DNA from: Hemiscyllium ocellatum
Taxonomy: Eukaryota
Assembly (NCBI RefSeq): GCF_020745735.1
Contig: NW_026867492.1
Location: 124,001-188,000, forward strand
DNA length: 64,000 nucleotides
Reading direction: 5' to 3'
The notes below the pieces were generated by a model, which was not told where the DNA came from, made no database searches, and worked only from the letters and a program-made list of their open reading frames with translations. This document shows positions 1 to 63,275 of the stretch, piece by piece; the stretch's first letter is position 1; each line of letters opens with the position of its first letter. Position numbers and translations under genes: made by a program.

Positions 1-224
1 GACAGTCACTCAATCCATCGGGACCTCAACGATTTTCAACTATGATTCTTTGAGAAGGAGCAAAACATTTTGGTTCCTGTTTCAGACAATTTTCAGCATC
101 AGCGGGACTGGATGAGAGTCTCTACTGTTACAGCGCACTTTGTGTAAAGCCTGAAACAGTTATACGGCCAGGAAAGAGGAATTTACTGTGGACAGGGGCC
201 ATACACGAGGCTGTAGCTGCAGCC

Positions 225-1400: not shown

Positions 1401-1474
1401 TTCTCCTGACAGTGGGTGCAGTGGGAGAGTTGGTGCACTGTATTTGTTTTCCGTTGGACTGCAACCCCACGGTG

Positions 1475-1870
1475 GCTCAGAGGTGGCATGGTGACTGAGT
1501 GATTAGCACTGTTGCCTCATGGCACCAGGAACCAAGGATCAATTCCACCCTTGGGGCGACTGTCTGTGTGGAGTTTGTGGAGGGTAGGAGAATGGATGAG
1601 ATAAGAAACCGCTGCCTGCCTTGAGACAAGTCTCCCGGAGAGAACTTGCTGACTGATTGATTGTCTGATCTCCTGATCCTCACAGTGCCCTATTGCCCTC
1701 AGTTAACTGGAGGAGGTCCACACAGATGTACCGAAGCCCCTCTTTGGACTGTGGAAGGAAACCTGTGCAGACAGGGAAAGCATGCAAACTCCACATAGAC
1801 AGTTACCGGAGGCTGGAATTAAACTTGGGTCCCTTATGCTGTGAGGTAGCAATGCTAAGCAGTGTGCTAC
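1475..1870. mobile_element. Two fragments of tRNA-derived V-SINE (HE1-like) in opposite orientations
   Basis: GGTGGCATGGTGACTGAGTGATTAGCACTGTTGCCTCA... head on the plus strand at about 1482-1578. Reverse copy (AAACTCCACATAGACAG...GCAATGCTAAGCAGTG) at about 1740-1870. Confidence 0.7.
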
Positions 1871-2569
1871 CCCAATATGTTATAAAATTTGAATAAACCT
1901 ACTAAGTTGGAAATGTGTCCATGCCAAGAACTTACTGTAAATGTTTGGAAGCAAAAGTCCATCGAAATTGTCTTTGTGACGGATCTAAAACTTACTTCAT
2001 TAATGATTGAAAATACTTTGACCTCTGGAACTGTCTGCCAGAGAGTGTGTTGGAGTCAGATTCAATTACGGTATTCAAAATAGAGGTGGATCATTCAACT
2101 GAAAAGGAAAGCAATTGTAGTGTTCAGTGAAGAATAGTACAAGGTACTGTAGTGGATGTCAGAATGAATTTTCTGATTGGGGCTGTTCACTTGCTCCTGT
2201 TACCATTTCAGGTTGCTGACTTTTCGTTAGCATCCTGCACATGTTGGGATTTTTTTCTCCTTTCTAGGATCTATTTGAGTGACTCAGTGACAAATCTAGT
2301 TTATGAATTGTTCCTATGATATCTCATGAGAGGGTTTATGATATTCAGTGCTGTATAAATTGTTGTGGGTCACAATGTGTCCAAGTGAGGAAAAACAAAC
2401 TGTTCATCTTAAATATTTGTTTTTAAACAATGGAAATAAACAATGGAAAACACACACAACTTGCTGTGTAGGAATCATCATAAATAGGAATGGGAGTAAG
2501 TAATTGACTGTCGAGATGCTCTGTCTTTCATTTATCTAAATTCTCTTTCCTGTACTTGTTTTTTCGTGA

Positions 2570-3015
2570 CTTCATCTGCTGAAGTGACTACACTCCAAAA
2601 GCTTGTGATTTCAACATAAGAACTAGGAGCAAGAGTCGGCCTTCCGGCCCTTCGAGTCTGCTTCACCACTCAATAAAATCATGACTCATCTTTTCGTGGA
2701 CTATGTATGCTCCACTTACCTGCACTTTCACCATATCCCTTAATTCTTTTATTTTTTCAAAAACGTATCTACTGCTTCTAGTGATTGCTGAAGTAATGTC
2801 AAATACTTCCCTGGGCAAGGAATTCCATAGATGAACAACCCTCTGCGTGAAGAAGTTTCTTCTCAGTTCAGTTTTAAACCTGCTTCCTCTAATCTAGAGG
2901 CCATGCGCTCTTATCCTAGTCTCACCTACCAGTCCAACATTCTATTTCTATTTCTGTAAGATCATCCAAACAACCTGTTGGACTATAACCTGGTGTCATG
3001 TGACTTATGACTAAA
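2570..3015. mobile_element. Penelope-type terminal repeat interrupted by a minus-strand CR1 3' fragment (about 2615-2960)
   Basis: Degenerate hammerhead-like CTGCTGAAG...CAAAAGCTTGTGATTTCAA, resuming at AACCTGTTGGACTATAACCTGGTGT (same family as 15645-15765). The CR1 3' end CATAAGAACTAGGAGCAAG... lies between. Confidence 0.6.
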
Positions 3016-3389
3016 AAATGTGTTACCACGCATCCTCATAGCAGTGGGATTTCAGGGCTCGAAGATTGGGACACTACCACTGCATCATAAAATAAAACCC
3101 TCTGCAGCAAATAGGTCCTCTTCTATTGAATGAATGGGGAGAGGTTTCTTCTCAACATGGGGTACAAATATTATACCCTCAGAGCCCATTACACTGAATT
3201 GAGCCCTCTTCGGTTGAATGAATGGATGTGGAGGTGCCATAGTTGAAAACGTTAAAAATCACATCTTGCCCCTAAATATGTGACACTACCGCTATAGCCC
3301 CAGAGCCCGTTGCAGTAAATTGGGTCAGCTGCTGTTGAATGAATGAACGGGAATGAAAAGGGCGGATTCACTGAGCCGCTTGTGACATT

Positions 3390-3880
3390 CCCCACCAATC
3401 CCAAAGCTTGTGGTCGGTACCGACCAATCGGAGAGAGAGATTGCAGAGGGTGGGACAACATGACACACAAACACGGCCGCTATTGGTCAGGTGGAGACAG
3501 GTGCGCTCTGATTGGAGGAGGGGCGGATGACGCGCGTCACAGGAGGAGACGATGGAAAGAAGAAGAAAAACAAAAATGGCGGCGCGAGGCTGCGGTTTCT
3601 GACGGAGGGAGGGGGGCAGACAGGCATCGTTTACCTCAGAAAATACCTTTAAAATACATTTCACATTAAAGTCGGAACTTTTCAAACAAGAGGTGACGGT
3701 TACCAGGTGAACGGGAAAACAAATTAAAACTGTCGGCGGTGGAGGAGAGAGAGCCGGCGCCCGCGGCTTCTTCGGCGGCGGCCGGAGCCCAGGAGCTCAA
3801 CAACCCCCCGGAGCTGGAGGAAGGTCCGAGCTCCAAGAAGCGGGGGGTCCGGCTGGAGGCTGGATTTACTCAAGGCTTGT
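3390..3880 (+). promoter_or_regulatory. CpG-rich promoter/first-exon region (candidate promoter of ZNF-B)
   Basis: Several CCAAT/ATTGG boxes, GC box GGGGCGG, TGACGC half-CRE, YY1 consensus AAAATGGCGGC at 3573-3583, and high CpG density relative to flanks. Confidence 0.65.
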
Positions 3881-4839
3881 ATCTATTAACTTATTTAAAT
3901 GGTACCTACTGTATGGGGGTATGGTTTACATTAAAACCGGAGGATCATGTCAGAGTGTTTGTTTATATTGAGCAGTTGTAGTTGGTAAAATACACTCCCT
4001 GGAGGAACACCTTCTATGATGCTGCATTTCTTACCTTCTGCCCTTCCCCCATTTGTTATCTCTCATCTCAATTTTACATTTTCGGTCAAATTTAATTTCA
4101 CATTAATCAGCCTTGGTATTCATTGTGTATTATTAATTAATCTGTTGGATTATTGTAAGACAAAATTAATGGTGTAATTTCGTTTATGATGTCTGAGTTT
4201 GACATTGAATGTGCAGGTGTGAATACCAGTACGGTGTAAAAATAAATCAAGAGCTTGTCCTTTTTTAACAAAAAAAGGAGTTTAATGATATTATTGGCAC
4301 TGTCTCCTTGAGCATGATGATTCAAATCTGAGCAACAAACCATTTCATGCAGTCACCCAGTTTAATTCAAGTCGAAGAAAATAATTCTGGCAGGCTAAGA
4401 TTTATACAACCCAAAATATGATTGATTATCTTGTGTATTCTTACCTTTAAGCCGTAACAGAAGGCATTGCGTGGCAGTTTGAGACTGAAACACGGCTGGA
4501 AAGAATGTAGATTGATGAGGAAAATCAAATGGCAGAGTCTGAATCTGTCAGTCTGGCTTGATTGCATGAGTGGTGGTTCTTCAAAAGCATCTTCCAAGCC
4601 ATGACCTCAACCACCAAGAACAGAGAAGTGTGAACACAGGATTCCGACTGCAAGATATATCGCATTGCTTCTTTGTTATTGACCAAAATGCTGGAACTCA
4701 CTCCTGAACATTGTTGCAGACCACACCATGTTTGTGAAGCAATTTAAGAGGCAGCTCAGCACCACCTTTTCAAGGTCAGTTTGGAAAGAGTTGTTGGCAC
4801 AGCCAATGATATTCACATCTCATGAAATAGTAAGCAAAG

Positions 4840-5865
4840 AGCCCAGGGTGTTGGAGGCTGAATGTTAGCATGGATAGAGGATTGGCTAACTACCACAGTT
4901 GTGGTAAGGGGCATGTTCAGGATGGCAACTTGTAACTTGTGGTGTACCACAGGGATCAGCGCTGGGGTCAACATTATTTACAATATGTATACGAATTACT
5001 TGGATAAGTAAAGTGACTGTACTATTGCTAAGTTTGCAGAAGAGACAGTTGATGTGAAAGCAGGTGGTGAGGATGACATTAGATATCTGGAGAGGGATAT
5101 AGACAGGTTAAGCAAATGAACGAAAGCTTGGCAGATGGGAAAATGAGGTCATGCAGTTTGTCAGGAGGTGAAGAACTGAATATTAAATGGAGAAAACTTG
5201 AGAGGGATTTGGAATCACATCCACGAATCTCTTCATCCAATTTCAGTAAGTAATAGGGAGGCAAATGGGAGTTTGGCCTTTTCAACAGAGTATAAATGTA
5301 GAAAGGTTATAGTGAACCTTTGTAAGGCCCTAGTCAGGCCACAAGTGAATACTATGAACAGTTTAGGACCCTTTTACCTGAGGAAAGATATATTGGCATT
5401 GGAGGCAGTCCAGAGATGGTTGACCATGATGATATCAGGGATGGAAAGAATGTCTTATGAGGAGAACTGAATAGGTTGGGCCTGTGCTTATTAGAAGTTA
5501 GAAGAATTAGAGGTAACCTTATTGTCACGTACAAGATTCTGAGGAGACTTGACAAGCTGGACGTGGGAAAGTGGGTGAGTCTGGGACCAGAGGAAGTAAC
5601 CTCCAAATAAGAGATTGCATGTTTAGGACAGATAGGAATTACTCCTGAGGGCAGTAAATCTGTGGAACTTGATACTAAAAGGGCTGTTGAGCCTGGGTTG
5701 TTATGTGCATTCAAGGCTGAGATAGTGTTTGTTTTAATCAGTAAGCGAATTGAGGATTACTGAGGATTATGGGACAATGGCAGAAAAGTGGAGTAAATGT
5801 TTACCAGAATAATTGTGATCTGAATGAATGGCAGAGTCAACTCAATGGGCTGAATTGAACAGTAA
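4840..5865 (+). mobile_element. Old CR1 LINE, ORF2 3' part, degraded
   Basis: Remnant motifs VTCGVPQGS, AKFAE, LVRPQ, ALEAVQRW, MSYEE, ending in a CR1-type 3' tail. Confidence 0.8.
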
Positions 5866-5934
5866 ATACTAATGAGGAAAAGGATACAACTGGCAATTAC
5901 AGACCAGTCAATGTTGGGAAGCCTAGAGATTGTA

Positions 5935-6870
5935 GGGAGTTGGTGGCATTTGGGCATTGTTACTGGATTTAACATCTGGAGTTTCAAAATGATGCTGCTA
6001 TGGCCGCGATGCAATTTGAAATCAATTTATGTATCTGGAATATAAAGCTGCTTTGATGATCTTATCAATTGTCATAAGTACCGATCTTGTTCACTAATAA
6101 CCTTGTTTTTAAGGAAGGAAATCTTCAGTCCTTTCCCAGTTTGGTGAATGTGTCACTCTTGATCCAAAGTCATGTGATTGACTCTTAACTGCCCTCTGAA
6201 TTGGCACTTGGTTCTTTTAGGAGACAAAGTGTCACATTCCATGAATGAATAAAGAAAAATATTCAGGACAAGATTGTCACTGTCAGTGAAGGGAAGATTG
6301 TGATCTAGTGATACTGGTTAAGTAGCCCAGAGATTTCGGTTTTCTGAGAACAAAAATTAAAATCCCATCCTGGATGCTAGTGGACTTTATTTTCAATGAA
6401 TAAAAAGATCAGGAAGTGAGAGTTTGTCTCAGTACTGGCAACAAGGAAACCATTATTGGCTAAGACAATGAATTGCAGATGTTGGAGATCAGCAACAATT
6501 GCTGGGAAACTGCAGCAGGTCTGGCAGCATCTGTGGAAAGAAAACAATTAATGTTTTGAATCCAGCCTAATTTTGAAGGACCACCGGACTCAAAACAGTA
6601 ACACTGTCGTCTCCTCATAGATGCTGCCAGAACTATTGCTTTTGTCCAATCATTACTGATTGTTGTGAAAGTATTCTTTTCGGGAGGGAAATCTACCATT
6701 CACAACCCTACACATGTGTGCGCACGCTCACATCATGTGACTCCAGACCTACTACAATGTGGTTGACTCTCAACTAAGTTCTAGCATGTAGCCAATTGCT
6801 CGGTCAAAAGGCCATGAAGGATGGTGAGCAAATGTTGGACATGCGAGCAACAATCCCATCCCTCAAAATA
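5935..6870 (+). mobile_element. DeuSINE (SacSINE1-like) fragments with a Penelope-derived insert at about 6460-6640
   Basis: Deu-core-like AGGAAGGAAATCT...TGACTCCAGACC...ATGTGGTTGACTCT(T/C)AACT and a CATGAATGAATAAA tail. Confidence 0.55.
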
Positions 6871-6994
6871 TTTTCTTATATATTATAAAGCATAAGTTAA
6901 TGAAGGACAGCCAAAACAAACTGCTATGGGAAGGTCATGCCCAACTAACTTGATTTGCTTGTAGTTATAAATGTTGTTTTTAAAATCTTCTTCA

Positions 6995-7655
6995 GCGAGG
7001 ACATTGGTTCCATCATTGTTGCAATACTGCATGCAATTCTGTGCTTTCTGATACAGGAAGGGTGTTATGAAATTTGAAAGGGTTCAGAAAACATTTACAA
7101 GGATGCTGCCAGGGCTGGAGGGTTTGAGCTACAGGAAGAGGCTGAATAGATTGGGGCTGTTTTCCCTGGAGCTTTGGAGGCTGAGGAGTGACTTTAAAGA
7201 CATTTATAAAATCATGAGAGGCATGGGTAGGGTAAATAGGCAAGGTCTTTTCCCTTGGGTGGGGGAATCCAAAATTAGAGGGCATAGGTTTAAGTTAATG
7301 GCAAATGGAGTTTAATATAGATAAGTGTGAGTTCTTATATTTTGTATCGTCAAATCAAGACAGGAATTCCATGGTGAATAGTAGGACTTTAAGGAGTGTA
7401 ATGGAACGTAGGGATCTTGGAAGGACTCTAGCAAATTAGAGTCGAGATAAGCACCAAATAATAACACATACCAACAAGCACCAAATCTGTTTCATATGCA
7501 GGATTTCAAACCAAGAGATGTAGGGGTGCAGGTTCATCGCACCTGGAAAGTGGAGTCATGGGTAGACAGGGCGGTGAAGAAGACTTTTGGCATGTTTGCT
7601 TTCATCAGTCAGAGTACTGAGTACAGGAGTTGGGATGAATTATTGCAGCTGTCAT
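6995..7655 (+). mobile_element. CR1 LINE ORF2 fragments (rearranged)
   Basis: ORF 7067-7315 KFERVQKTFTRMLPGLEGLSYRKRLNRLGLFSLE..., followed by upstream-type CR1 sequence (DKCEFLYF...). Confidence 0.8.
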
Positions 7656-8533
7656 AGATTTCACATAACAACACAAGATGTAACCCTGCCCTCCCCTGAC
7701 TGACCGTCCCTTTGCATATCAGGGGGAAGATGCCCATTTAATTGTGATGATCAGGAAACATGCCATCCTTCAAAAACAGGGCTGTGTTCACAAATATTTG
7801 GACAGAGGAAGGAAGTTGAAGTTTGGGTGAAGATCAATCTTCATTCAGAGAGAGAAGAAGAGCAGCAGCAGCTTCTGAAATTCATGGTCCAACTTCTGAA
7901 AAGACCTTGTCTGATTTGCAGTTGTTTCTGGGCTTGTAATACCGTACTGCAGCATATTGTAGATCTTCAGTAAGAACGTCAATACTGCACTAGAGGTCCA
8001 TTCAGCAAGTTGAGTCCATGTGAACTCTTTGTTGAGGTATGCAGTCTGCCCCATAACCCTGTTGGTTTACAGTTACATATAGATCTACACAAAGATCTTT
8101 GGGATTGAGAGGAAAGAATGTTCCACAGTAACTAGAATTACGTTTAGATTTTCTGTCATGGACTGACTGTGATGACCCTTGCAATCACTTCACAAGAATA
8201 TTACAAGAGAAGAATTTGGAGGCAGAAATCTCAGACCAAATATCACATCAAAGTCTGACAGTCACTTGATTCACGAGGACGTGGATATTGATGGCCTTGA
8301 AAACAAAGAGGAGAAAGTCTGTCTGCTTAGTTAGGTTTTAAACGTCAGTGTGACTGGAACCTTAGAGTCTCACATACCCACACACCAGAGTAGTGACTGG
8401 AACAAGCTTTACAGACTGAATGAGAGTGTTCCAATTATCAGAGGGTTCACCAGTAACACCACACACATGCTATAAGTGTGAGCGAGTTTTCAACTGATTG
8501 TTAAGGTCAGAGACAGACGAGGGCACCTGTACC

Positions 8534-9040
8534 ATGGAGAAACCGTGGAAATGTGGGGAGTGTGGGAATGGTTTCCCTTCGCTATCTGCGCTGGAGATTC
8601 ATTGGCGTTTGCACGTCGGGCAGCGGCTATTCACCTGTACTCACTGCAGGAAAGGCTTCACTCAGTTACACCACCTCCTGGCCCCCCAGTGGGTCCACAC
8701 CAGCAAGAACCCGTTCATCTGCCCCGTGTGTGGGCAGGGCTTCACTCAGTCACACCAGCTGTTGCCGCACCAGCGGATGCACACCGGAGAGAAACCATTT
8801 TCCTGCTCCGTGTGCGGGAAGGGCTACACCCGGTCGTATCACCTGCTGCTCGGCTTCCACGTCCACACTGGGAAGAAGCCGTTCACCTGTCCCGTGTGGA
8901 GCAATGACTTCTGTGATTCCTCCACCCTGCACAAACACCAGCGCATCCACACCAAGGAGCAGCCGTTCACCTGTCCAGTGTGTGGGAAGGGCTTCACCCA
9001 GTCGTGCAACTTGTGGAGACACCAGCAACTTCACAAGTGA
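8534..9040 (+). CDS. Short C2H2 zinc-finger ORF, 6 fingers of which 3 lack a Zn ligand (ZNF-B, copy 1; possibly a pseudogene)
   Basis: ACCATGG start at MEKPWKCGECG. Finger 2 has H>P (LAPQWVH), finger 4 H>G (LLGFHVH), finger 5 C>W (CPVWS). The frame is open to TGA. Confidence 0.65.
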   Translation: MEKPWKCGECGNGFPSLSALEIHWRLHVGQRLFTCTHCRKGFTQLHHLLAPQWVHTSKNPFICPVCGQGFTQSHQLLPHQRMHTGEKPFSCSVCGKGYTRSYHLLLGFHVHTGKKPFTCPVWSNDFCDSSTLHKHQRIHTKEQPFTCPVCGKGFTQSCNLWRHQQLHK

Positions 9041-9729
9041 GATTGCGCAGGGATTCAGGTTGGATTCTGCTGTTACCGCTGCTGAGAGTCACATCTTGAA
9101 CCCTGTTTAGTGGGTGAAGTGGGAGGGGTAAGGGGTTCCTTTATGCTGACTGGTCGCTCTCACACCCACTTTACTTCCAATGGGGGCTGATGCTCTCTGA
9201 GCCTGGGATTGCACCATCCCTACGGAACAGTCCACAGAAGTGGCTGAAGTGCATTTAGATCTGAAATAGATACATTTGTCTCTGTCCCATTGAGTCTCCA
9301 GCACAGTCGATCCAATTGGCCTCTGTCAGTGTTTATGCTACACCTGAGCATCCACCCACCCCTTCATCAGCATACAGGTATCCCCTGTTTTTGGAAGTTC
9401 ACTTTACCCCCTACCCCCTCCCCATCCAAGCCTGTGCCAATTCTTAATCCTAACTTAGATCTGCTATTTATTGCCGATGTGTGGTTCCTGTCCCTGTATT
9501 CACCTCCCATTCATGTGTCTATCCAGATATACCTTAAGTGTTGCTAAGGTGCCTCTTTCCACTCCATCCAATGGCAATGCATTCCAGGCATCCAGCATCC
9601 AACTGTGTGAAAAATCTTCCCTTTCAATTCTCCCCCAGACTGTCCCCTTCTCGCCTTGAACCTGTGCCCTCTTGTAGTTGACTTTTCCACTCTGGGGAGA
9701 GGGAAAGCCTCTGACTATCTAACAGACTA

Positions 9730-10090
9730 TCTGGCCCAACACCAAACATCCAAAGAATAATCCACACAGACCCATTTCCCTATCCCTATTACTCGACATT
9801 TACCCCTGACGAATGTACCTAACTTTCAATTCTTGAACACTGTGGGGCAATTTAAGCACGGACAATCCAACTTAACCTGCCAATCCCTGGGCAGTGGGTA
9901 ATTTAGCATAGCCACTCCACCCTAACCTACACATTTGGATTGTGAGAGGAAACCGGAGGAAACCCATATCGACACAGGGAGAATTTGCAAACTCCACACA
10001 GACAGTCGCCTGAGACTGAAATCGAACCAGTTTCCCTGGCGCTGTGAGGCATCAGTGCTAATGATTGAGCCACCATGCCACCCCCAACCA
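9730..10090 (-). mobile_element. HE1-like V-SINE
   Basis: Reverse complement reads GGTGGCATGGTGGCTCAATCATTAGCACTGATGCCTCACAGCGCCAGG...CTGTGTGGAGTTTGCA...GTTTCCTCCGGTTTCCTC, the same family as 35958-36273. Confidence 0.8.
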
Positions 10091-25542: not shown

Positions 25543-26814
25543 GGCCACAGCTTCAGCTGCTCACAGACATGTGTAGAGCCCCTCCCTGCCATGAAATCCC
25601 CTTCCCAGGCCGTATAACTGTTTCAGGCTCCACACACACTGCGCTGCAACAGTGGGGTCTCTCGTCCAGTCCCACCTGATGCTGAAAACGTCCTCAAAAC
25701 AGGAACCAAAAAGCGTTGATCCCTCTCACAGAAATCACAGTCAAAAATTGTTGAGGTCTCGATGGATTGAGTGACTGTCAGACATTAACATCAAAGTGAG
25801 GACTGCCGACGCTGGAGAATCGGTCAAAAAATGTGGCACTGCAAAAGCACAGCAGGTCAGGCAGCATCCGAGGAGCAGGAAGAGTCAATGTTTTAGACAT
25901 AAGCCCTTCATCTGCTGATTTTGAAACTTCAGTCTTCAGATTTTCAAATACTCTGCAAAAAGAGATTTCAAAAGTCATCACTATCAGTACTGGGTAGAAA
26001 TTCAGAACAAGCAATTCTACTTTCTCTAGAATATTCTTTTGCTGTTCCACAAAATTGAAAGCACCATCCCACTCTCCCTTCCCCTCTGTTCTCACTCCGG
26101 TCTAACTAATTCCCCTGAAGGTGCTGATTCAGGATCTTACAGGGACAGAAAAATCAAAAACATCAAGACTGACATCTCTCTGAATTTTGGATAACTCCAC
26201 CTGAAAGTTAATATCTTTCACAACACTGGGATCCTGCTGAGAGTGAGCAGGTCTGATTTTGGGAAGCAAAAAAAAGTGTCAATTCAGGGTGAACCTGCAA
26301 TGCAGTTTCTTGAGGAAGGACCAGACACAAAATGGTTAACGACCCCAGGAAGGTGGGAGCAAAATGAGACATCAAGGCATTAACACCAACACACTTCAGT
26401 CAAACTCTTCTGCTCCCAGTCAGGAGAAAGGGAGGGCTTCAGGGCTCACGCCTGAAACGTCGATTCTCCTGCTCCTTAGATGCTGCCTGACCTCCTGCAC
26501 TTTTCCAGCAACACATTTTCAGCTGCTTCCAGTCAGGGCAAAACATGCTCTGAAAGTCCAGCCTTCACAATCACACTTCTGCTTTCACTGAAGACAATTA
26601 GAGTCACACAGCACAGAAACAGACCCTTTAGCTCAATCTGTCCGAGTTGACCAGATATCCTAAATTAATCTAGTCACGTTTGCCATCACTTGGCCCCTAT
26701 ATGGGCCGGGTGCTGGCAGCTGGGACTAAATTGGGTTGGCTATCATGTGCAATAGAGCTAAGGGAGAGCCTAATGGGAACAGAATTTTGAGGACCATTGT
26801 CTACCAGATGTACA

Positions 26815-27380: not shown

Positions 27381-27629
27381 TAAGACGATTGGGAAAGTTT
27401 TCAAAACCCACAAACGACAACCGGGAAAACATTGAGGTATCAACACCGGGGTGGGGAGTGGAGAAGGGAAAGGAAGCCAAAAGTGCTGGAGGCAAGGCAG
27501 AGGAAGAACACAGGATGCACAGCCGGCTTGAAGCTGCACGTGCTGTTGCATTTACTTGTGGAAATCGGGTGCATTTTGAAAAGGAAAACAGGAAAGATAT
27601 CTCCTCCTCCCAATCTCTGTCCTCCTCAC

Positions 27630-27910
27630 CTGGTAATTAAGTCCTATATCTGAGTTGACAGAGTCTGCTCCCTCCCTGGATTCACTCCCGTTGCTACAAG
27701 TGAACAGATTTTCCCGCCCCAGGATTTGCGCAGACAGAGGGATTTTCATTCATTGTCACTTCCGCGTTTTGATGTCACGAAAGGAGCGGGTGGGCGTGGC
27801 CAAGCCGGGCACACGCACTGCGCCTGCGTTGTCCTGCACCGTTTGCTCATATCCATTCGCTTCAGAGAATCCCCACAGAGTGGGAGCAGGCCACTCGGCC
27901 CAACGAGTCC
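27630..27910 (-). promoter_or_regulatory. First exon/promoter of ZNF-D
   Basis: Minus-strand donor CCAG|GTGAG (intron starts 27629), GCGGAAGTGAC ETS-like motif at about 27756-27766, GC-box-like and NRF1-like (TGCGCCTGCG) motifs. Aligns with 18796-19110. Confidence 0.6.
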
Positions 27911-29590: not shown

Positions 29591-29869
29591 TAATCTGTAA
29601 ATTACCTCCTGAAGAATGTAATTTAAGTGCAGAGCTTTTCTAAGAAAATTGTCAGTTTGACTCAACATTGGGACACAGACAGAATTCACACCTATTGTCT
29701 CTGCTTATAAACAGGGCAACGTCTCTTCGAAATGTAGATTCATTTAGATATAACTGCGTCACTTTACATATTAAGACATCCCTTTGAATGTGCCACATCC
29801 CTTTGAAATGTAATCTCGTCCATTTACATCTCTGTATTTGCGGAAATACCCTTTAAAATGTCCTCGAAA

Positions 29870-30072
29870 CGTGGCAGTGTCCCCCCTGCAGCTGCAGAGC
29901 GAGACAGGAGAGTTTGTTTTTGTGAATGAGCAGTTGTAGCGCGAGGTGGCTGTTGCTTGGTGACGGTGAGGCTCCCCGGCCCCGCCCATTCCCCCCGTGC
30001 AGACGTCACGCGGGGGTGAAGGCGGTTGGGAGGAGAAGTCGCTCGAGCGGGGAAGCGGCGGCCGTTAGGAAA
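29870..30072 (+). promoter_or_regulatory. CpG-island promoter upstream of the QSOX-like exon
   Basis: CCCGCCC GC box, CRE-like AGACGTCA (30001-30008), YY1-like AAAATGGCGCC (30070-30080), and very high CpG content. Confidence 0.65.
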
Positions 30073-30324
30073 ATGGCGCCGTGCGGCCCGGGGCAGACCC
30101 CCGTCACTGGTCACCGCCGCCTTCGTGGTGCAGCTGCTGTGTCACGGCCACACCGGCCGGCTGTACAGCAGGCAGGAGCCGGTGACCATTCTGGAGGCGG
30201 ATGGGGTTAAGGGCCTGTTTGGGAACTGGTCGGCCGCCTGGGTGGTGCAGTTCTACTGGTCGTGGGGCGGCCCCTGTGTCAACTATGGGGCCACCTGGAA
30301 GGTACTGGGCCCGGGAGGTGAAAG
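30073..30324 (+). pseudogene. QSOX1: Decayed exon 1 of quiescin sulfhydryl oxidase (QSOX, most like QSOX1): signal peptide plus start of the first thioredoxin domain
   Basis: Frame of ORF 30026-30328 reads ...LVTAAFVVQLL...RLYSRQEPVTILEADGVKGLFGNWSAAWVVQFYWSWGGPCVNYGATWKVL. This matches the QSOX N-terminus as recalled (LYSPSDPLTLLQAD...AWAVEFFASWCGHC..FAPTWKALA.DVK). After a +1 shift it reads AREVK, then a phase-1 donor AAAG|GTGAGG. The ATG is out of frame and WCGHC has become WGGPC. QSOX1 vs QSOX2 is not certain. Confidence 0.8.
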
Positions 30325-30629
30325 GTGAGGCAGGTTGTGGGGGGGACGGAGGGGAAGGAATGTGGGGCCTGTCCTGTCATAGTCACATTTTACACTCACT
30401 TTCCATCTGCTTTTACGGGCGCTTGTGCTGTTTACCCCTCACTGTTACTTGTGCAATTCCTTAGACTAGTGTGTAAATACTAGTGGAGCAGATTATGCAC
30501 CAGCATCTGTTTCTCCGTCATTGAAGGGATAGGATCTGTGGAGAATGGTTAGTAAAGCATGTGGCGAGCTAAGCCTTGTTAACATGGATATTGTTTGTTG
30601 TTTTTCAAATTATACTTTATTATTTAGAC

Positions 30630-30950
30630 TCGTCAGAATTGTACAGCATGGAAACAGACACCTTTGGTCCAACCCGTCCATGCTGACCAGATATCCTAAA
30701 TTAATCTCTTCCCATTTGCCAGCACTTGGCTCATATGCCTCTAAATCCTTCCCATTCATCTACACACCCAGATCCTTTTAAGTGCTGTAATTGTACCACC
30801 CTCCACCACTTCCTCTGGCAGCTCATTCCATACACACACCATCCCACCCTCTGCATGGAAAAGTTGCCCCTTAGGTACCTTTTATATCTTTCTGCTCTCA
30901 CCCTACACCTATGCTCTCTAGTTCTGAACTTCACCCCTACACTGGGGAAA
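30630..30950 (-). mobile_element. CR1 3' end
   Basis: ORF 30731-30934 FRTREHRCRVRAERYKRYLRGNF, with a CR1 tail. Confidence 0.8.
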
Positions 30951-33521: not shown

Positions 33522-34150
33522 TGTAACGAAAACTTGTCCTTCAGAATTTAGACTAAAATGTAATGTTGAATTATAGAACACATTTGCTCCACACTAGACA
33601 ATAGACAGGCAGGGAGGGTAAGACAATTAAGAACGTTTGACATCAGTGAATTTGTATAAACAGGATATTGAGTGATCACATTCATGGCTGTTCCTTTGTG
33701 AAATGAATAAGTGTTTGATTCTGACCTCAAAACGAAACTTGGTATCAATTACTTCTCTCCCAAATTATTGCCCTTCACTGTTATCTGTGTTGTTCAGAAC
33801 ATGCAGTGCTTTTGTAAAATAAAATTCATATAAAGAAAGCTTGTTTGCGACAGCACCATCTTTGTAAAAAACTTGTATATAAAGATAGTACACAGAGTAG
33901 CCCGCCAGGGCTCTTGGAAGAAGAGTGATTGCTACTCTCCTGGGTTAATAGAATCCAGTTAGCTTGTCTTATAAGTATCGGTGTTATGTTGTAACGGTGA
34001 TGGTATTAATGAAGGGGATAATTTAAAATTAAACTAAACTGTCTGTAAGAGTTTTATTTTTATTCCAGACTTCTAAAGAGTACGATCTCCAGGATGAACC
34101 AAGATAGGCTGACAGGTCTGAGTCCACAAGGGACTCCTTGGGCTGTCTCA
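33522..34150 (+). repeat. ERV 5' LTR (about 630 bp)
   Basis: TGTAAC...GCTGTCTCA. The first about 220 bp align to 39597-39875 and the rest to about 40655-40955. Contains TATAAA and ATTAAA. Confidence 0.8.
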
Positions 34151-34153
34151 ATT

Positions 34154-39577: not shown

Positions 39578-40955
39578 TAAAAAAGTCTATAGCCATAAAA
39601 CTTGACTTTAAACATTTAAACTAAAATGTAATGTTGAATTATAGAGCACATTTGCTGCACACTATAAAATAGACAGACAGGGAGGCTTGGTAAAAGGGGA
39701 GAACTCAAGGTATGCAGAAGATAACCAAGTGATAACAGAATACCCTAAGACAATTAAGAACATTTGCCTTAACAGTGAATCTGTGTAAATAGGACACAGA
39801 GTGATAACATTCAGGCTGTTCCCTTGTGAAATTAATGACAGTGTTTGATTCTGACCCCGAAACAAAACTCGGTACTATCAAAGGCCTTGTAATTGACAGT
39901 CAGGAACTGTTAATTATAATGGATTCTTATTATCCTTTGCAAGCTAGGCAAACAGAGGGAAAACACCTTTACTGTTACAACTCCCTGACTTGAGAGTTCA
40001 AAAGGACAAGAGAGAGAGAAACCATTATAGCACTGGGGCTCCTGAAGCCATTAAAACATTACCTCTTCGTGCTTACCTGCTTTGGATTGAACGTAATTGC
40101 ATTTTTGAGACTTTATGATGGTATTGAGTAGCCATTGCCGGTTATTAAATATGAACTCTGTAAAAGGTAACATTGATGAAGCTTTAACTTACTTGCTGTT
40201 CTGGTAGACCACTCTACAGACCTTTCAGACTGCCCCACTGTCAATTCCAACTAATCAGATCTTATGTCTTATTTGAATCACAACCCTGAAAAGAAAGCAT
40301 GTTTAATTCAAACAGTAATGAATCAGTTTAAATGCAACCTTTTGGTAACATCTCAGCCTCAGGTACAGTATGATTCTGGCGCAATGTGTCAGCAAGCCAT
40401 TTTATGGTCAAAAGTTTGCCCTCCTGCTAAGAAGCCATTTTGGAAACAGTTGTATCTGACATGTGACCTGTGCAAGGTTCGGAACTCTCCAATTAGCTCA
40501 GATTGGTACCTCTTCATGATAGGAGTTTATCTCGCTAGCAGGCACCTAACTTGGCTGGGTATGTTTTTCCCACCTGATGAATGGCTTAGGGCCTGTGGGA
40601 GTGATTAGTCAAGCGTACAGAGACCTGTCAATTGACTTTTCTTCCTTACGTATTAAGAACATGCAATGTTTTTGTAAATCTTTGTGTAAAGGAAACCACT
40701 TTGTATCAGTACATCAGAGTAGCCTGCCAGGGTACTTGAAGAGTTGGTCCCCTACTCTCCTAGGTTACTATAGCCTAGCTAGTTTAGCTTATCGGTATCA
40801 GTGGAGCTGTTGGTAAGTAAAGGGGATAACTAAAATTAAACTAAACAGTCTGTAAGAGGTTTTTTTTATTCCAGACTCTCAAAGAGTACAATCTCCAGGA
40901 CGAATCGTGAGAGGTTACAGGTCTGACTCCACAAGGGATTCCCTGGGCTGTCTCA
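39578..40955 (+). repeat. ERV 3' LTR (about 1.38 kb)
   Basis: Follows the PPT. Both ends are homologous to the 5' LTR, and it ends CCACAAGGGATTCCCTGGGCTGTCTCA. Confidence 0.75.
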
Positions 40956-40969
40956 AATCCCTACTTTAA

Positions 40970-44774: not shown

Positions 44775-45142
44775 GCTGGCGAGGGGAGCAGGGAACACAT
44801 TTGCCCCGCCCCCATTGCCTCCGATTGGTTGGATGCTACGTCGAACCGCGCCCACGACACGCGGGGTGACGTCAGGATCTGGTCATCCAGCCCCGTGAGT
44901 TGGCGCATGTGCAGTGTAGGTCATGTAGTGGGACAAAGACAGTGTTACTGAGTGTGGGAGAGGAATGGCGCCGGCGGCTGAAGGAACAAGAACAGAAACC
45001 GCTGGAAAAGCTGAGCAGCCCTGGCTGCATGTGTCAAGAGACTCCGAGGAAACGTTACGTGTCCAGTGATTCTCTTTCAGAACAGAAACAGGTTTCGGAG
45101 AGGTCGCCAGGCCTGAGCGCCCGGGGAGAGGGGACAGTGAGT
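44775..45142 (+). promoter_or_regulatory. CpG promoter and probable first exon (candidate upstream promoter for ZNF-A copy 2)
   Basis: GC box GCCCCGCCCC, ATTGG, full CRE TGACGTCA (44867-44874), NRF1-like GCGCATGTGC, YY1-like AATGGCGCC, and donor GTGAGT at 45137. Confidence 0.6.
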
Positions 45143-45144
45143 AC

Positions 45145-46742
45145 CTACTTCGACACTGTCCTATCCCCCCCCCCCCCCCAGTCCAGGAACTCCCCACATA
45201 CGTTCAGGACACCACCCACGCCCTCCACCTCCTCCAAGACTTCCGTTTCCCCAGCCCCCAACGTCTCATCTTCACCATGAATATCCAAACCCTCTACACC
45301 TCCATCCGCCATGGCCAGGACCTCGAAGCCCTCTGTTTCTTCCTCTCCCGACGTCCCCAACAGTACCCTTCCACCGACACTCTCATTCGTCTGGCCAAAC
45401 TGGTCCTCATCCTTAACAATTTCTCCTTCGAATACTCCCACTTCCTCCAGACCAAAGGGACAGCCATGGGCACCCGTATGGGCCCAGCTATGCCTGTCTC
45501 TTTGTTGGCTACGTAGAACAGTCCATTTTCCATAATTAAACCGGCACTCTCCCCACCTCTTCCTCCGCTACATTCATGACTGCATTGGCGCCATCTCGTG
45601 CTCCCGCGAGGAGGTTGAGCAAGCTTCACCGACACATTCCACCCTGACCTTAAATTTACCTGGACCATCTGACACCTCCCTCCCCTTCCTGGACCTCTCC
45701 ATCTCCATTAATAACAACCGACTTGACAGTAGCGTTTTATAAACCCACCGACTCCCACAGCTACCTGGACTGTACCTCTTCCCACCCTACCTCCTGCAAA
45801 AATGCCATCCCGTATTCCCAATTCCTTCGCCTCTGCCATATCTGCTCCCAGGAGGACCAGTTCCACCACAGAACACACCAGATGGCCTCCTCCTTCAGAT
45901 ACCGCAATTTCCCTTCCCACGTGGTTAAAGATGCCCTCCATCTTAAGCTTCGCATAAACCAAATCATCCGCCGACATTTCCGCCACCTCCAAATAGACCC
46001 CACCACCAGGGATATATTTCCCTCCCTATCCCTTTCCACCTTCCACAAAGACCGTTCCCTCTGTAACTAGCTGGTCAGGTCCATGCCCCCCAGAACCCAC
46101 CCTCCCATCCTGGCACCTTCCCCTGCCACCTGCGCCCTCACCTCCATCCAAGGCCCTAAAAGTGCCTTCCACACCCATCAAAGTTTTACCTGCACATCCA
46201 CCAATATCATTTATTCTATCCGTTGCTCCAGATGCGGTCTCCTGTACATTGGGGCGACTGGACGCCTCCTAGCAGAGCGCTTTAGGGAACATCTCTGGGA
46301 CACCCGCAGCAATCAACCACACCGCCCTGTGGCCCAACATTTCAACTCCGCCTCGCACTCTGCGAGGACATGGTGGTCCTGGGCCTCCTTCGCCGCCGCT
46401 CCCTCACCACCAGATGCCTGGAGGAAGAATGCCTCATATTCCACCTCGGAACACTTCAACAATTTCCTCATTTCCCCTTCCCCCACCTCACCCCAGTTCC
46501 AAACTTCCAGCTTAGCACTGTCCCCATGACCTGTCCTACCTACCTACCTATCTTCTTTTCCATCTATCCACTCCACCACTCCTCTCTCTCCCCCCATACC
46601 TATCACCTTCCTCCCACCCCCACTCACCTATTGTACTCTATGCTATTTTCTCCCCACCCCCACCCTACTCTCATTTATCTCTCCACCCTTCAGGATCTCT
46701 GCCTGTATTCCTGATGAAGGGCTTTTGCCCAAAATGTCGAAA
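45145..46742 (+). mobile_element. Penelope-like retroelement (RT + GIY-YIG endonuclease), 5'-truncated and frameshifted
   Basis: IFTMNIQTLYTSI, NNFSF..FLQTKGTAMGTRMGP, FLRYIHD, PFLDL, YKPTDSHSYL..SSHP..AIPYSQFLRL, IIYSIRCSRCGLLYIGATGR..ERFREH. Terminal hammerhead-like motif at 46711-46738. Confidence 0.9.
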
Positions 46743-53809: not shown

Positions 53810-54459
53810 GTTCAACCTGAATTTACACTTCTTTTGCTTCCCAAAATTAGACTTGCTCACTCTCAGCAATATCCTGAAAGATATTAACTTTCACGTGGTG
53901 TTATCCAAAATTCGAAGATGTCAGTCCTGACGTTTTTTGAGAGTGGGATGCTTTCAATTTTGTGGAACAGCAAAAGAAAAAAATGTTCTGCAGAAAGTGG
54001 AGTAGCTTGTTCTGAATTTCTACCCTGGACTGACCGTGATGACTTTTGTAATCTCTTTTTCCAGAGTATTTGAAGATCTGAAGACTGAAGTTTAAAAATC
54101 AACAGATGAAGGGCCTATGCCTGAATCGTCGATTCTCCTGCTGTTTGGATGCTGCCTGACCTGCTGTGCTGTTCCAGCACCGCACTTTTCAACTCCTCTC
54201 CAGCCTCTGCAGTCCCCACTTTCACATCAATGTCTGACAGTCACTCAATCCATCGGGACCTCAACGATTTTCAACTATGATTCTTTGAGAAGGAGCAAAA
54301 CATTTTGGTTCCTGTTTCAGACAATTTTCAGCATCAGCGGGACTGGATGAGAGTCTCTACTGTTACAGCGCACTTTGTGTAAAGCCTGAAACAGTTATAC
54401 GGCCAGGAAAGAGGAATTTACTGTGGACAGGGGCCATACACGAGGCTGTAGCTGCAGCC
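53810..54459 (+). other. Inferred 5' UTR exons/intron of ZNF-A, shared with ZNF-C and ZNF-D
   Basis: Acceptor TCATTGCAG|G (53810) is homologous to minus-strand acceptors at 18060 and 26294. Last-exon acceptor TTTTCCAG|AGTATTTG (54065) is homologous to 25952. Confidence 0.55.
54104..54222 (+). mobile_element. Penelope-derived repeat with decayed hammerhead in the ZNF-A 5' UTR
   Basis: (C)AGATGA-A-GGGC-CTAT-GCCT-GAAT-CGTC...GATGCTGCCTGACCTGCTG. Orthologous at 25793-25913 and 17621-17721. Confidence 0.8.
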
Positions 54460-55635
54460 ATGGTTAAACCAGAGGACTCCCACACCGTGGAGAAACCGTG
54501 GAAGTGTTGCGACTGCGGGAGAGGCTTCCATGCCCCATCTGTCCTGGAGATTCATCGGCGAAGTCACACCGGGGAGAGGCCATTCTCCTGCCCCGAGTGC
54601 GGAAAAGGCTTTACCTGCTCCTCCCACCTGCTGGACCACCGCCGAGTCCACACTGGGGAGAAGCCATTCTCCTGCCCTGAGTGTGGGAAGGGCTTCACCT
54701 ACTCCTCCCACCTGCTGGCCCACCAGCGCGTCCACGCTGGGGAAAGGCCCTTCCCCTGCTCTGAGTGTGGGAAGGCCTTCAGCAAATCCTCGGACCTGCT
54801 GAAGCACCAACGAGTCCACAGAGGGGAGAGGCCATTCAGCTGCCCTGAGTGCGGGAAGGCCTTCAGTGATTCCTCGATTCTGCTGAGGCACCAGTGGGTC
54901 CACATCGGGAAAAGGCCGTTCTCGTGCCCTGAGTGCAGGAAGGGCTTCACCCGCTCTTCTGCTCTGCTGACCCATCTGCGGGTCCACACGGGTGAAAAGC
55001 CCTTTAGCTGCCCCGAGTGCAGGATGGCCTTCAGCAGGTCTTCCCACCTGCTGAGGCATCAGCGAGTCCACACTGGGGAGAGGCCGTACTCCTGCCTCCA
55101 GTGCGGAAAGTGCTTTACCCAGCCCTCCAACCTGCTGACCCACCAGCGGATCCACACCCGCGAGAGACCGTTCTCCTGCTCCGAGTGCGGGAAGGGTTTT
55201 GCTGTTTCCTCTAACCTCGTGGCCCACCGGCGGGTCCACACGGGGGAGAGGCCATTCAGCTGCCCCGAGTGCGGGAAGGCCTTCAGCAATTCCTCTGCCC
55301 TGCTTAGGCACCAGCGCGTTCACACCGGAGAGAAGCCGTTCTCCTGCCCAGAGTGCGGGAAGGGGTTTACCCGCTCCTCCACACTGCTGACCCACCAGCG
55401 GGTCCACACAGGGGAGAGGCCATTCAGCTGCCCCGAGTGCAGGAAGGCCTTCAGCGATTCCTCCGCTCTGCTGAAGCACCAGCGAGTCCACACCGGGGAG
55501 AGGCCCTTCAGCTGCCCTGAGTGCGGAAAGAGGTTTACATTTTCCCGCAACTTGCGGAAGCACCAGCGGGGGCACCAGCGCTCACAACAATCAGATTCCA
55601 CCGCTGACACTGCCATGAGTAACCCCCAGGACTGA
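54460..55635 (+). CDS. C2H2 zinc-finger protein, 13 fingers (ZNF-A, copy 2)
   Basis: 391-aa translation identical to 225-1400. Confidence 0.92.
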   Translation: MVKPEDSHTVEKPWKCCDCGRGFHAPSVLEIHRRSHTGERPFSCPECGKGFTCSSHLLDHRRVHTGEKPFSCPECGKGFTYSSHLLAHQRVHAGERPFPCSECGKAFSKSSDLLKHQRVHRGERPFSCPECGKAFSDSSILLRHQWVHIGKRPFSCPECRKGFTRSSALLTHLRVHTGEKPFSCPECRMAFSRSSHLLRHQRVHTGERPYSCLQCGKCFTQPSNLLTHQRIHTRERPFSCSECGKGFAVSSNLVAHRRVHTGERPFSCPECGKAFSNSSALLRHQRVHTGEKPFSCPECGKGFTRSSTLLTHQRVHTGERPFSCPECRKAFSDSSALLKHQRVHTGERPFSCPECGKRFTFSRNLRKHQRGHQRSQQSDSTADTAMSNPQD

Positions 55636-57624
55636 TTCTCCTGACAGTGGGTGCAGTGGGAGAGTTGGTGCACTGTATTTGTTTTCCGTTGGACTGCAAC
55701 CCCACGGTGGCTCAGAGGTGGCATGGTGACTGAGTGATTAGCACTGTTGCCTCATGGCACCAGGAACCAAGGATCAATTCCACCCTTGGGGCGACTGTCT
55801 GTGTGGAGTTTGTGGAGGGTAGGAGAATGGATGAGATAAGAAACCGCTGCCTGCCTTGAGACAAGTCTCCCGGAGAGAACTTGCTGACTGATTGATTGTC
55901 TGATCTCCTGATCCTCACAGTGCCCTATTGCCCTCAGTTAACTGGAGGAGGTCCACACAGATGTACCGAAGCCCCTCTTTGGACTGTGGAAGGAAACCTG
56001 TGCAGACAGGGAAAGCATGCAAACTCCACATAGACAGTTACCGGAGGCTGGAATTAAACTTGGGTCCCTTATGCTGTGAGGTAGCAATGCTAAGCAGTGT
56101 GCTACCCCAATATGTTATAAAATTTGAATAAACCTACTAAGTTGGAAATGTGTCCATGCCAAGAACTTACTGTAAATGTTTGGAAGCAAAAGTCCATCGA
56201 AATTGTCTTTGTGACGGATCTAAAACTTACTTCATTAATGATTGAAAATACTTTGACCTCTGGAACTGTCTGCCAGAGAGTGTGTTGGAGTCAGATTCAA
56301 TTACGGTATTCAAAATAGAGGTGGATCATTCAACTGAAAAGGAAAGCAATTGTAGTGTTCAGTGAAGAATAGTACAAGGTACTGTAGTGGATGTCAGAAT
56401 GAATTTTCTGATTGGGGCTGTTCACTTGCTCCTGTTACCATTTCAGGTTGCTGACTTTTCGTTAGCATCCTGCACATGTTGGGATTTTTTTCTCCTTTCT
56501 AGGATCTATTTGAGTGACTCAGTGACAAATCTAGTTTATGAATTGTTCCTATGATATCTCATGAGAGGGTTTATGATATTCAGTGCTGTATAAATTGTTG
56601 TGGGTCACAATGTGTCCAAGTGAGGAAAAACAAACTGTTCATCTTAAATATTTGTTTTTAAACAATGGAAATAAACAATGGAAAACACACACAACTTGCT
56701 GTGTAGGAATCATCATAAATAGGAATGGGAGTAAGTAATTGACTGTCGAGATGCTCTGTCTTTCATTTATCTAAATTCTCTTTCCTGTACTTGTTTTTTC
56801 GTGACTTCATCTGCTGAAGTGACTACACTCCAAAAGCTTGTGATTTCAACATAAGAACTAGGAGCAAGAGTCGGCCTTCCGGCCCTTCGAGTCTGCTTCA
56901 CCACTCAATAAAATCATGACTCATCTTTTCGTGGACTATGTATGCTCCACTTACCTGCACTTTCACCATATCCCTTAATTCTTTTATTTTTTCAAAAACG
57001 TATCTACTGCTTCTAGTGATTGCTGAAGTAATGTCAAATACTTCCCTGGGCAAGGAATTCCATAGATGAACAACCCTCTGCGTGAAGAAGTTTCTTCTCA
57101 GTTCAGTTTTAAACCTGCTTCCTCTAATCTAGAGGCCATGCGCTCTTATCCTAGTCTCACCTACCAGTCCAACATTCTATTTCTATTTCTGTAAGATCAT
57201 CCAAACAACCTGTTGGACTATAACCTGGTGTCATGTGACTTATGACTAAAAAATGTGTTACCACGCATCCTCATAGCAGTGGGATTTCAGGGCTCGAAGA
57301 TTGGGACACTACCACTGCATCATAAAATAAAACCCTCTGCAGCAAATAGGTCCTCTTCTATTGAATGAATGGGGAGAGGTTTCTTCTCAACATGGGGTAC
57401 AAATATTATACCCTCAGAGCCCATTACACTGAATTGAGCCCTCTTCGGTTGAATGAATGGATGTGGAGGTGCCATAGTTGAAAACGTTAAAAATCACATC
57501 TTGCCCCTAAATATGTGACACTACCGCTATAGCCCCAGAGCCCGTTGCAGTAAATTGGGTCAGCTGCTGTTGAATGAATGAACGGGAATGAAAAGGGCGG
57601 ATTCACTGAGCCGCTTGTGACATT

Positions 57625-58115
57625 CCCCACCAATCCCAAAGCTTGTGGTCGGTACCGACCAATCGGAGAGAGAGATTGCAGAGGGTGGGACAACATGACA
57701 CACAAACACGGCCGCTATTGGTCAGGTGGAGACAGGTGCGCTCTGATTGGAGGAGGGGCGGATGACGCGCGTCACAGGAGGAGACGATGGAAAGAAGAAG
57801 AAAAACAAAAATGGCGGCGCGAGGCTGCGGTTTCTGACGGAGGGAGGGGGGCAGACAGGCATCGTTTACCTCAGAAAATACCTTTAAAATACATTTCACA
57901 TTAAAGTCGGAACTTTTCAAACAAGAGGTGACGGTTACCAGGTGAACGGGAAAACAAATTAAAACTGTCGGCGGTGGAGGAGAGAGAGCCGGCGCCCGCG
58001 GCTTCTTCGGCGGCGGCCGGAGCCCAGGAGCTCAACAACCCCCCGGAGCTGGAGGAAGGTCCGAGCTCCAAGAAGCGGGGGGTCCGGCTGGAGGCTGGAT
58101 TTACTCAAGGCTTGT
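57625..58115 (+). promoter_or_regulatory. CpG-rich promoter (copy of 3390-3880)
   Basis: Same CCAAT, GC-box and YY1 (57808-57818) motifs. Confidence 0.65.
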
Positions 58116-62768: not shown

Positions 62769-63275
62769 ATGGAGAAACCGTGGAAATGTGGGGAGTGTGG
62801 GAATGGTTTCCCTTCGCTATCTGCGCTGGAGATTCATTGGCGTTTGCACGTCGGGCAGCGGCTATTCACCTGTACTCACTGCAGGAAAGGCTTCACTCAG
62901 TTACACCACCTCCTGGCCCCCCAGTGGGTCCACACCAGCAAGAACCCGTTCATCTGCCCCGTGTGTGGGCAGGGCTTCACTCAGTCACACCAGCTGTTGC
63001 CGCACCAGCGGATGCACACCGGAGAGAAACCATTTTCCTGCTCCGTGTGCGGGAAGGGCTACACCCGGTCGTATCACCTGCTGCTCGGCTTCCACGTCCA
63101 CACTGGGAAGAAGCCGTTCACCTGTCCCGTGTGGAGCAATGACTTCTGTGATTCCTCCACCCTGCACAAACACCAGCGCATCCACACCAAGGAGCAGCCG
63201 TTCACCTGTCCAGTGTGTGGGAAGGGCTTCACCCAGTCGTGCAACTTGTGGAGACACCAGCAACTTCACAAGTGA
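62769..63275 (+). CDS. Degenerate 6-finger C2H2 ORF (ZNF-B, copy 2)
   Basis: Translation identical to 8534-9040. Confidence 0.65.
   Translation: MEKPWKCGECGNGFPSLSALEIHWRLHVGQRLFTCTHCRKGFTQLHHLLAPQWVHTSKNPFICPVCGQGFTQSHQLLPHQRMHTGEKPFSCSVCGKGYTRSYHLLLGFHVHTGKKPFTCPVWSNDFCDSSTLHKHQRIHTKEQPFTCPVCGKGFTQSCNLWRHQQLHK

Follow-up and report, generated by a model that had tools for sequence, protein, structure and literature searches.

A once-captured QSOX2 promoter in zinc-finger gene clusters of Hemiscyllium ocellatum: probably a borrowed non-coding first exon with a core kept uniform by recombination between copies

The stretch of Hemiscyllium ocellatum DNA analyzed here (64,000 nucleotides, hereafter the window) carries the CpG-island promoter, first exon, and splice donor of QSOX2 among zinc-finger (ZNF) genes, and the genome holds at least 307 copies of this element. 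The promoter was captured once, as DNA, and some copies are spliced onto ZNF exon 2. We think it likely that the family is now a borrowed, non-coding alternative first exon, and that its core stays uniform by recombination between copies. The copies probably overwrite each other and swap neighbors, which would make the borrowed promoter a hub for reshuffling the clusters.

In the window, the element lies on the forward strand. Positions 29701 to 29863 are homologous to QSOX2 upstream DNA (parent -479 to -321) and are followed in this copy by a deletion of about 107 bp. The homogenized core of promoter, exon 1, and donor extends from 29833 to 30373 (-240 to +300 from the former QSOX2 ATG, from which all signed offsets are counted). 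Its GC content of 0.63 and CpG observed/expected ratio of 0.73, against a whole-window mean ratio of 0.37, agree with the CpG promoter proposed in an earlier reading made from the letters alone (the sequence-only reading). Promoter-like motifs of putative function lie at 29980 to 30078; we take them to be a GC box (29980), a CRE-like site (30002), and a YY1-like AAAATGGCG (30070) that overlaps the ATG. This last motif is intact in 61/61 full-length copies.

Exon 1 spans approximately 30013 to 30324; its 5' end is at -60 in one RNA-like contig and at -19 in a retrocopy on contig C8. The former start codon now opens a 45-codon upstream open reading frame (ORF) at 30073 to 30210, with a frameshift at codon 6, and a second upstream ATG at 30201 stays open up to the donor (30324), with a stop predicted a few codons into ZNF exon 2. 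The thioredoxin active site at 30263 to 30277 is dead family-wide, WCGHC having become WGGPC. A GTGAGG donor, intact in 63/64 copies, leads into a remnant of QSOX2 intron 1 (30325 to 30917; about 620 bp of intron) that ends at the common 3' breakpoint, +873. The ATG, WGGPC, and exon end followed by GTGAG can all be read where the sequence-only reading had put them, and the ATG is, as it claimed, out of the QSOX frame, meeting a stop after 45 codons.

The QSOX similarity suspected at the outset holds up in database searches: an 83-amino-acid frame matches PDB QSOX1 chains (E 1.2e-10), and the DNA is homologous to an intact exon on contig C56. A Pfam scan of the 83-amino-acid frame matched no family. 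Genome-wide, two loci fit a degenerate pattern of the intact motif; in one of them, on C56, about 1.35 kb aligns to the window and both frame and WCGHC are intact; alignment to the C9 paralog reaches 42 bp at most. The named relatives of the C56 exon are QSOX2, and its best match is a Hemiscyllium ocellatum protein (100%). On the strength of this alignment and of these names, we identify the parent by homology as QSOX2, not QSOX1. In RefSeq, QSOX2 of several sharks is named "Lhx3 isoform" (P0015, P0016, P0019, P0023, P0024; C56), and two of those proteins combine QSOX with LIM/homeobox domains, as QSOX2-LHX3 read-through models.

The search for a parent locus that the sequence-only reading recommended leads, then, to intact QSOX2 on C56, with a capture span of at least -2041 to +873. 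In the 48 copies compared, the 3' limit of parent homology is mostly between +872 and +875, and the 5' limit is -267, -364, -479, -498, -805, or -2041; a near-common 3' breakpoint with varied 5' starts indicates a single capture, at least 2.9 kb long, followed by 5' truncations. Although 5' truncation has happened several times independently, none of the 61 full-length copies has lost the region from about -267 onward. QSOX2 upstream and intron DNA are retained along with the promoter and first exon, in line with the earlier proposal of DNA-level duplication rather than retroposition. Parent homology stops at +873, within intron 1, and there is, as that proposal had it, no QSOX exon 2 downstream.

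A leucine codon kept in the copies is absent from three hemiscylliid QSOX2 proteins and present in those of Stegostoma and other sharks; since the copies still have it, the capture probably predates its loss from hemiscylliid QSOX2. Hemiscyllium and Chiloscyllium are the only genera in which homolog searches recovered the family, which is weak evidence for its absence elsewhere. At one codon, parent QSOX2 and copies agree within each species, reading HTGRL in Chiloscyllium plagiosum and HTARL in C. punctatum (proteins P0016 and P0017 compared with P0004 and P0138), possibly through parent-copy exchange or parallel change.

Coding function has been lost throughout the family. The motif-killing changes at +184, +192, and +199 are present in 65, 64, and 65 of 65 copies, and the RefSeq models of three species (H. 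ocellatum, C. plagiosum, C. punctatum) share the dead motif. WGGPC is therefore not a sequencing error, and the error-prone consensus that had been offered as one option can be set aside. In the ATG frame a stop precedes the donor in 61/61 full-length copies sampled. We rejected the element as a QSOX enzyme: the copies lack WCGHC, the frame ends after 45 codons and the homology at +873, and the four Evr1_Alr matches in the genome, which would mark an Erv domain, are all away from copies among the matches listed. It is also very unlikely that the copies encode short peptides made of a signal peptide and a dead thioredoxin fragment, as the "sulfhydryl oxidase-like" models would have it. Such RefSeq models, of 86 to 192 amino acids, exist in three species, and in a few of them (P0003, P0135, P0137, P0138) the ATG is in frame, but the stop ahead of the donor is universal in the sampled full-length copies, both catalytic-motif changes are fixed, the C termini of the isoforms are mutually unrelated, and the 83-amino-acid frame resembles no Pfam family. 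The "sulfhydryl oxidase-like" RefSeq models of these sharks are most likely not enzymes.

Most differences from the parent are transversions (8 of the 25 are C>G), as had been noticed from the letters. The fixed differences comprise 8 C>G against 1 G>C (one-sided p 0.009, post hoc), an excess that is absent from the variants distinguishing copies from one another (exon, 2 versus 5). The promoter part differs from the parent at 8/267 positions and the ex-coding part at 25/252 (p 0.002), the latter figure being inflated by differences that arose on the parent side. The lower divergence of the promoter part from the parent suggests constraint on the promoter.

Genome-wide counts contradict the description of the exon as an orphan. 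A 24-mer across the dead motif has 268 exact matches and a promoter 25-mer has 307, with 0 for the reversed-pattern control in each case. A search with 801 bp returned 403 candidates, of which the best 40 of 403 were scored, at 91 to 100%, on contigs up to C921; among the exact matches listed, all lie on C63 to C85 except one on C8. The sample used below has 65 copies (61 full-length, 3 truncated, and 1 retrocopy), chosen by similarity or by the exact 24-mer, and includes related duplicates, so its members are not independent. We rejected the element as a transposon, since its 5' ends vary (-267 to -2041) and its flanks are held in common in blocks of many kilobases; only the C8 copy looks retroposed.

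Copies are often arranged in pairs that face each other across a one-finger ZNF remnant at a distance of about 13 kb (L039, L041, L043, L031), and C85 has back-to-back pairs 1.5 kb apart (151382/152842 and 568665/570115). The window spans a 54.2-kb tandem unit (1 to 9765 and 54236 to 64000) whose neighbor is 99.4 to 99.9% identical (C79:87297-138849 compared with 141723-193079; a 13-N gap lies at window 14850). The neighboring unit may be a very recent duplication or an uncollapsed haplotype. We consider it extremely improbable that an assembly or polishing artifact inflated the copy number and made the cores look identical. Most copies among the matches listed do sit on small contigs, and the near-identical neighbor of the window's unit is perhaps such a haplotype, but the flanks differ by 8 to 14% and fall into many types, two clusters have distinct cores, and the family recurs with its own variants in independent assemblies and runs of other species.

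The copies differ far less in the core than around it. Mean pairwise difference is 1.4% from -267 to -121, 1.1% from -120 to -1, 1.7% in the exon, and 0.6% at the donor, versus 8.0% upstream and 11.3 to 13.6% in the intron remnant (61 to 64 copies in the core and 32 to 51 in the flanks). A core of about 550 bp, with roughly 1% difference between copies, is set off from flanks with 8 to 14% by sharp edges near -240 and +320. The same holds for 41 copies not chosen by similarity to the window (0.4 to 2.8% in the core versus 9.9% and 13.8% in the flanks). Core distance stays at 0.9 to 1.4% while intron distance spans 6% to more than 18%.

Core variants also depart from the ancestry of the flanks. 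When 21 informative core sites are placed on an intron tree of 49 copies, 94 steps are required, where the minimum would be 22 and shuffling gives 100.5 on average; the lowest of 100 shuffles was 94, so a faint flank signal is left in the core. The retention index of the core is 0.20 on the intron tree and 0.41 on a half-intron tree, on which the other half of the intron reaches 0.78. Cores differ by 0.09% within C85 (12 copies), by 0.73% within the others (49 copies), and by 2.2% between the two sets, while introns differ by 12 to 14% in all three comparisons and C85 introns are scattered over the tree.

The cores are species specific as well. A G at +154 is found in 62/65 copies and is absent from five Chiloscyllium models (three of C. 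plagiosum and two of C. punctatum, compared at the peptide level), which share states of their own, even at the orthologous locus. Because flank exons at the orthologous locus are 88 to 95% identical between the genera in peptide sequence, the comparison suggests that the paralogous flanks predate the genus split and that the cores were rewritten after it. Paralogs thus resemble each other more than orthologs do in the core, and the core disagrees with the flank tree, as in concerted evolution.

The C8 retrocopy, which escaped the clusters, records an older core: it keeps three older states (+25, +40, +112), and four of its 11 differences are CpG transitions. Copies in the clusters show any transition at only 6/38 exon CpG bases, a difference that fits unmethylated cores. 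As a control, the native CpG island of the neighboring gene ZNF-D differs by 4 to 7% in three duplicates, no less than its flanks; a fourth native-island pair (island at 3600 to 4000) differs by 0 to 1% and is ambiguous.

Flanks have been shuffled around the core. Among 61 copies, upstream type U1 occurs with downstream types D1 to D4, U2 (one common junction) with D1 to D3, and U3, U5, and U7 each with two downstream types; the window copy is U1/D3, and its private letters are a G at +54 and a C at +174. Two upstream and two downstream types occur in every one of their four pairings, which requires exchange in or next to the core, and we infer non-allelic conversion and crossover there. The evidence for a hotspot is this historical shuffling. 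We give very little credence to purifying selection alone, acting on the promoter and leader of each copy without exchange. It would account for a sharp peak of conservation across promoter, exon, and donor, the last intact in 63/64 copies, but selection on separate copies cannot produce fixed variants specific to a cluster or species, or shuffled flanks, and core variants ignore flank ancestry. Orthologous copies resemble the paralogs of their own species more than each other, which largely refutes this explanation.

Loss of PRDM9 as the trigger of exchange was considered but finds no support, because the genome has genes that we read as PRDM9-like: three lie in tandem at G000:C116:33.95-34.16 Mb, with KRAB, PR/SET, and 11, 10, and 9 fingers. 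The contact residues of their fingers differ, and a fourth copy is degenerate (L140-L142, L146-L148, L150, L153-L159).

We offer as a tentative possibility a bolder version of recombination between copies, in which the foreign promoter has been domesticated as a recombination hub of KRAB-less ZNF clusters and a strand-biased C-to-G drive rewrites the core in each species. If so, some 300 near-identical open cores would be crossover points that re-pair promoters with zinc-finger genes.

Evidence that the family is transcribed and spliced comes first from the C8 retrocopy (C8:116538981, minus strand). It is devoid of upstream and intron DNA, and its exon 1, beginning at -19, is joined at the donor to a foreign exon of 71 bp, followed by a repeat with a tandem tail in repeat-derived surroundings; we take the repeat to be SINE-like and to lie inside LINE-like DNA. 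The 71-bp exon matches C63:4864569 (minus strand) at 97% and 39 other places at 79 to 100%, one of which is itself. The C63 match, which follows a normal acceptor, is exon 2 of a 10-finger gene and lies 18.4 kb downstream from a copy in the same orientation. Retroposition of a spliced product implies transcription in the germ line. C8 was the one site found when the joined exon-1/ZNF form was sought by exact pattern. The stretch C8:116538340-116539000 (L047, L099) is a chimera of the 5' part of an mRNA and a SINE-like repeat with a tail; no repeat of this kind adjoins the source exon, which suggests that the template was switched during retroposition.

RefSeq models, which are predictions, give further junctions. 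The tails of C. plagiosum P0005, P0006, and P0007 map best to three exons behind the C63 copy (53/56, 16/17, and 22/25 residues), one of which is ZNF exon 2, and in C. punctatum P0139 the junction leads into a ZNF exon 2 with 13/14 residues matching window positions 54066 to 54107. For the family, the retrocopy and these junctions show splicing into recipients, the partners being ZNF exon 2 as well as exons of LINE- or LTR-like origin. RNA-like contigs agree weakly with the spliced junction. Contigs of runs X1 and X3 cross it with 71+20 and 71+29 letters, short of 31 on both sides, and a contig of run X6 ends exactly at the donor; the RNA status of the runs is a guess, none of the listed holders being recorded as RNA, and the letters of such contigs differ from H. 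ocellatum copies. Among the matches listed for contigs on a 6.6-kb locus, repeats dominate and no exon-1-to-exon-2 joint occurs. In Chiloscyllium-type contigs and P0012, a lineage-specific change at +107 to +112 creates an internal GTGAG donor, which is used in contigs of runs X1 and X4. The proposal that the exon was recruited as a non-coding leader is supported for the family by the retrocopy, RefSeq junctions, and RNA-like contigs; for the window copy it is a prediction.

The partners guessed for the window copy, an endogenous retrovirus (ERV) remnant and ZNF-A, do have plausible acceptors, at 34069 and 54065, and are putative partners of this copy. The candidate exon 2 in the ERV remnant (34069 to 34151, forward strand) lies in its left LTR-like direct repeat (33887 to 34151), and 28/30 letters match the loose end at the donor in run X1. 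Degenerate direct repeats (76 to 88%) at 33529 to 34151 and 39597 to 40956 flank broken pol-like frames, and the same ERV remnant stands behind all D3-type copies fetched far enough. At window 33100, the homolog of a partner exon from Chiloscyllium has no acceptor AG. The CpG-rich fragment at 45070 to 46529, with reverse-transcriptase-like and GIY-YIG-like peptides, is presumably Penelope-like.

ZNF-A exon 2 and its C2H2 ORF occupy 54065 to 55635 on the forward strand, behind an acceptor AG ending at 54064. The ORF (ATG at 54460, 391 amino acids) has 13 fingers and no KRAB among the matches listed (25 families); an SSXRD search was blank, as was its control. Between element and ZNF-A lie 24 kb and the ERV remnant. 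A first-exon profile found no native first exon in this interval, a tentative result because the profile also matches repeat pieces and the donor test is too strict. For a ZNF-A paralog at C79:223330, the 28 kb separating it from the preceding ZNF exon 2 contain no copy of the element. A hypothetical exon-1/ZNF-A transcript would carry nine ATGs ahead of the ZNF start, three of them from the element.

On the other side lies ZNF-D (minus strand), with a native CpG-island first exon at 27615 to 27900 (donor near 27630) and exon 2 at 25882 to 25952, of the same family as the exon joined in the C8 retrocopy. Since ZNF-D has its own first exon, the divergent position of the element, which the sequence-only reading had thought relevant, needs no role. 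Native ZNF genes possess their own CpG-island first exons, and the joined 10-finger gene on C63 also has a native first-exon match. Since, in addition, just 12/27 copies have a co-oriented ZNF exon 2 as their nearest downstream exon 2, most ZNF genes need no element.

This random orientation is what one would expect if the core were a passenger hotspot, an open, recombination-prone promoter that spreads itself while its transcripts are noise of no benefit to ZNF genes. Many of the modeled partners are short-tailed exons of LINE- or LTR-like type, the ex-coding part evolves between species at about the rate of flanking exons, and the upstream ORFs come before any ZNF start. We nevertheless regard this account as unlikely: the promoter part is nearer the parent than the ex-coding part (p 0.002), 61/61 full-length copies retain the region from about -267 through independent 5' truncations, and the same ZNF junction is found in two genera at the orthologous locus.

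The history that we favor, of a borrowed first exon homogenized by exchange, begins with one DNA capture of at least -2041 to +873 of QSOX2, to judge from the shared breakpoint, and with its spread by segmental duplication. Frameshifts and the dead CxxC ended coding while the donor was kept. Transcription and splicing, germ line included, are documented for the family and predicted for the window copy. An open, CpG-rich core active in the germ line would be the site of exchange between copies; conversion would make cores alike within a cluster and a species, and crossovers in the core would join the upstream flank of one copy to the downstream flank of another and so give ZNF genes new promoter partners. 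With translation presumably damped by the upstream ORFs, the output would more likely be regulatory than a strong source of ZNF protein.

The family is a traceable natural experiment: its foreign promoter is dated, its parent gene is still intact, and there are copies by the hundred as well as orthologs from three species. Two questions thereby become open to test, namely by what route zinc-finger clusters outside tetrapods are rearranged and whether non-allelic exchange is driven by CpG-island promoters in a vertebrate with PRDM9-like genes still present. Borrowed promoters and promoter conversion are each already known; the literature searched (titles and starts of abstracts, with few subscription journals) yielded no description of the combination at this scale. 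Vandepoele 2009 is reportedly the source for the EVI5-derived promoter of NBPF genes. Passages of a 117-genome duplication preprint name H. ocellatum once and QSOX never, and PMC10602909 has no shark passage.

Among partial parallels, the NBPF genes, a duplicating multigene family, acquired a promoter derived from EVI5 (PMC3429928), which, like the shark element, comes from an unrelated gene and is an alternative to a persisting native promoter. NBPF comprises about two dozen genes, whereas the shark family has at least 307 copies, many not facing a family member, and the NBPF passages describe no homogenized core with shuffled flanks (PMC3429928). LRRC37 likewise took promoters foreign to it, those of BPTF and DND1, by segmental duplication; its passages concern few copies with tested promoter activity, while in the shark activity is predicted and the donor's first coding exon is included (PMC3371713). 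In NPEPPSP1-TBC1D3, as described in part of PMC12871316, a partial housekeeping duplicate with its promoter is spliced into exon 2 of a family member, giving two out-of-frame ORFs and no fused protein; that case is one locus with a 110-kb duplication, whereas the shark capture of 1 to 3 kb was amplified hundreds of times.

Homogenized promoter blocks have counterparts in the promoter "peaks" of mouse V1R genes (PMC1955453) and in silkmoth Hc chorion gene pairs (PMC4639761), where blocks of 500 to 1000 bp resemble each other more between paralogs than their surroundings do; gene conversion is proposed in the passages on both, for V1R as a suggestion. Those promoters are native, whereas the shark block is foreign and the native ZNF control is not homogenized, and, unlike in V1R and chorion genes, shark flank shuffling points to crossovers as well as conversion. 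Recombination hotspots at promoters and CpG islands are described for birds, dogs, and, beside PRDM9 sites, snakes (PMC11703093, in part); there, too, exchange centers on CpG-island start sites, but it is allelic and directly measured, whereas the shark exchange, deduced from copies, would be non-allelic and in a genome with PRDM9-like genes. By analogy with these systems, the element appears to work like the promoter captures of NBPF/EVI5, LRRC37, and NPEPPSP1-TBC1D3 with homogenization of the V1R type added.
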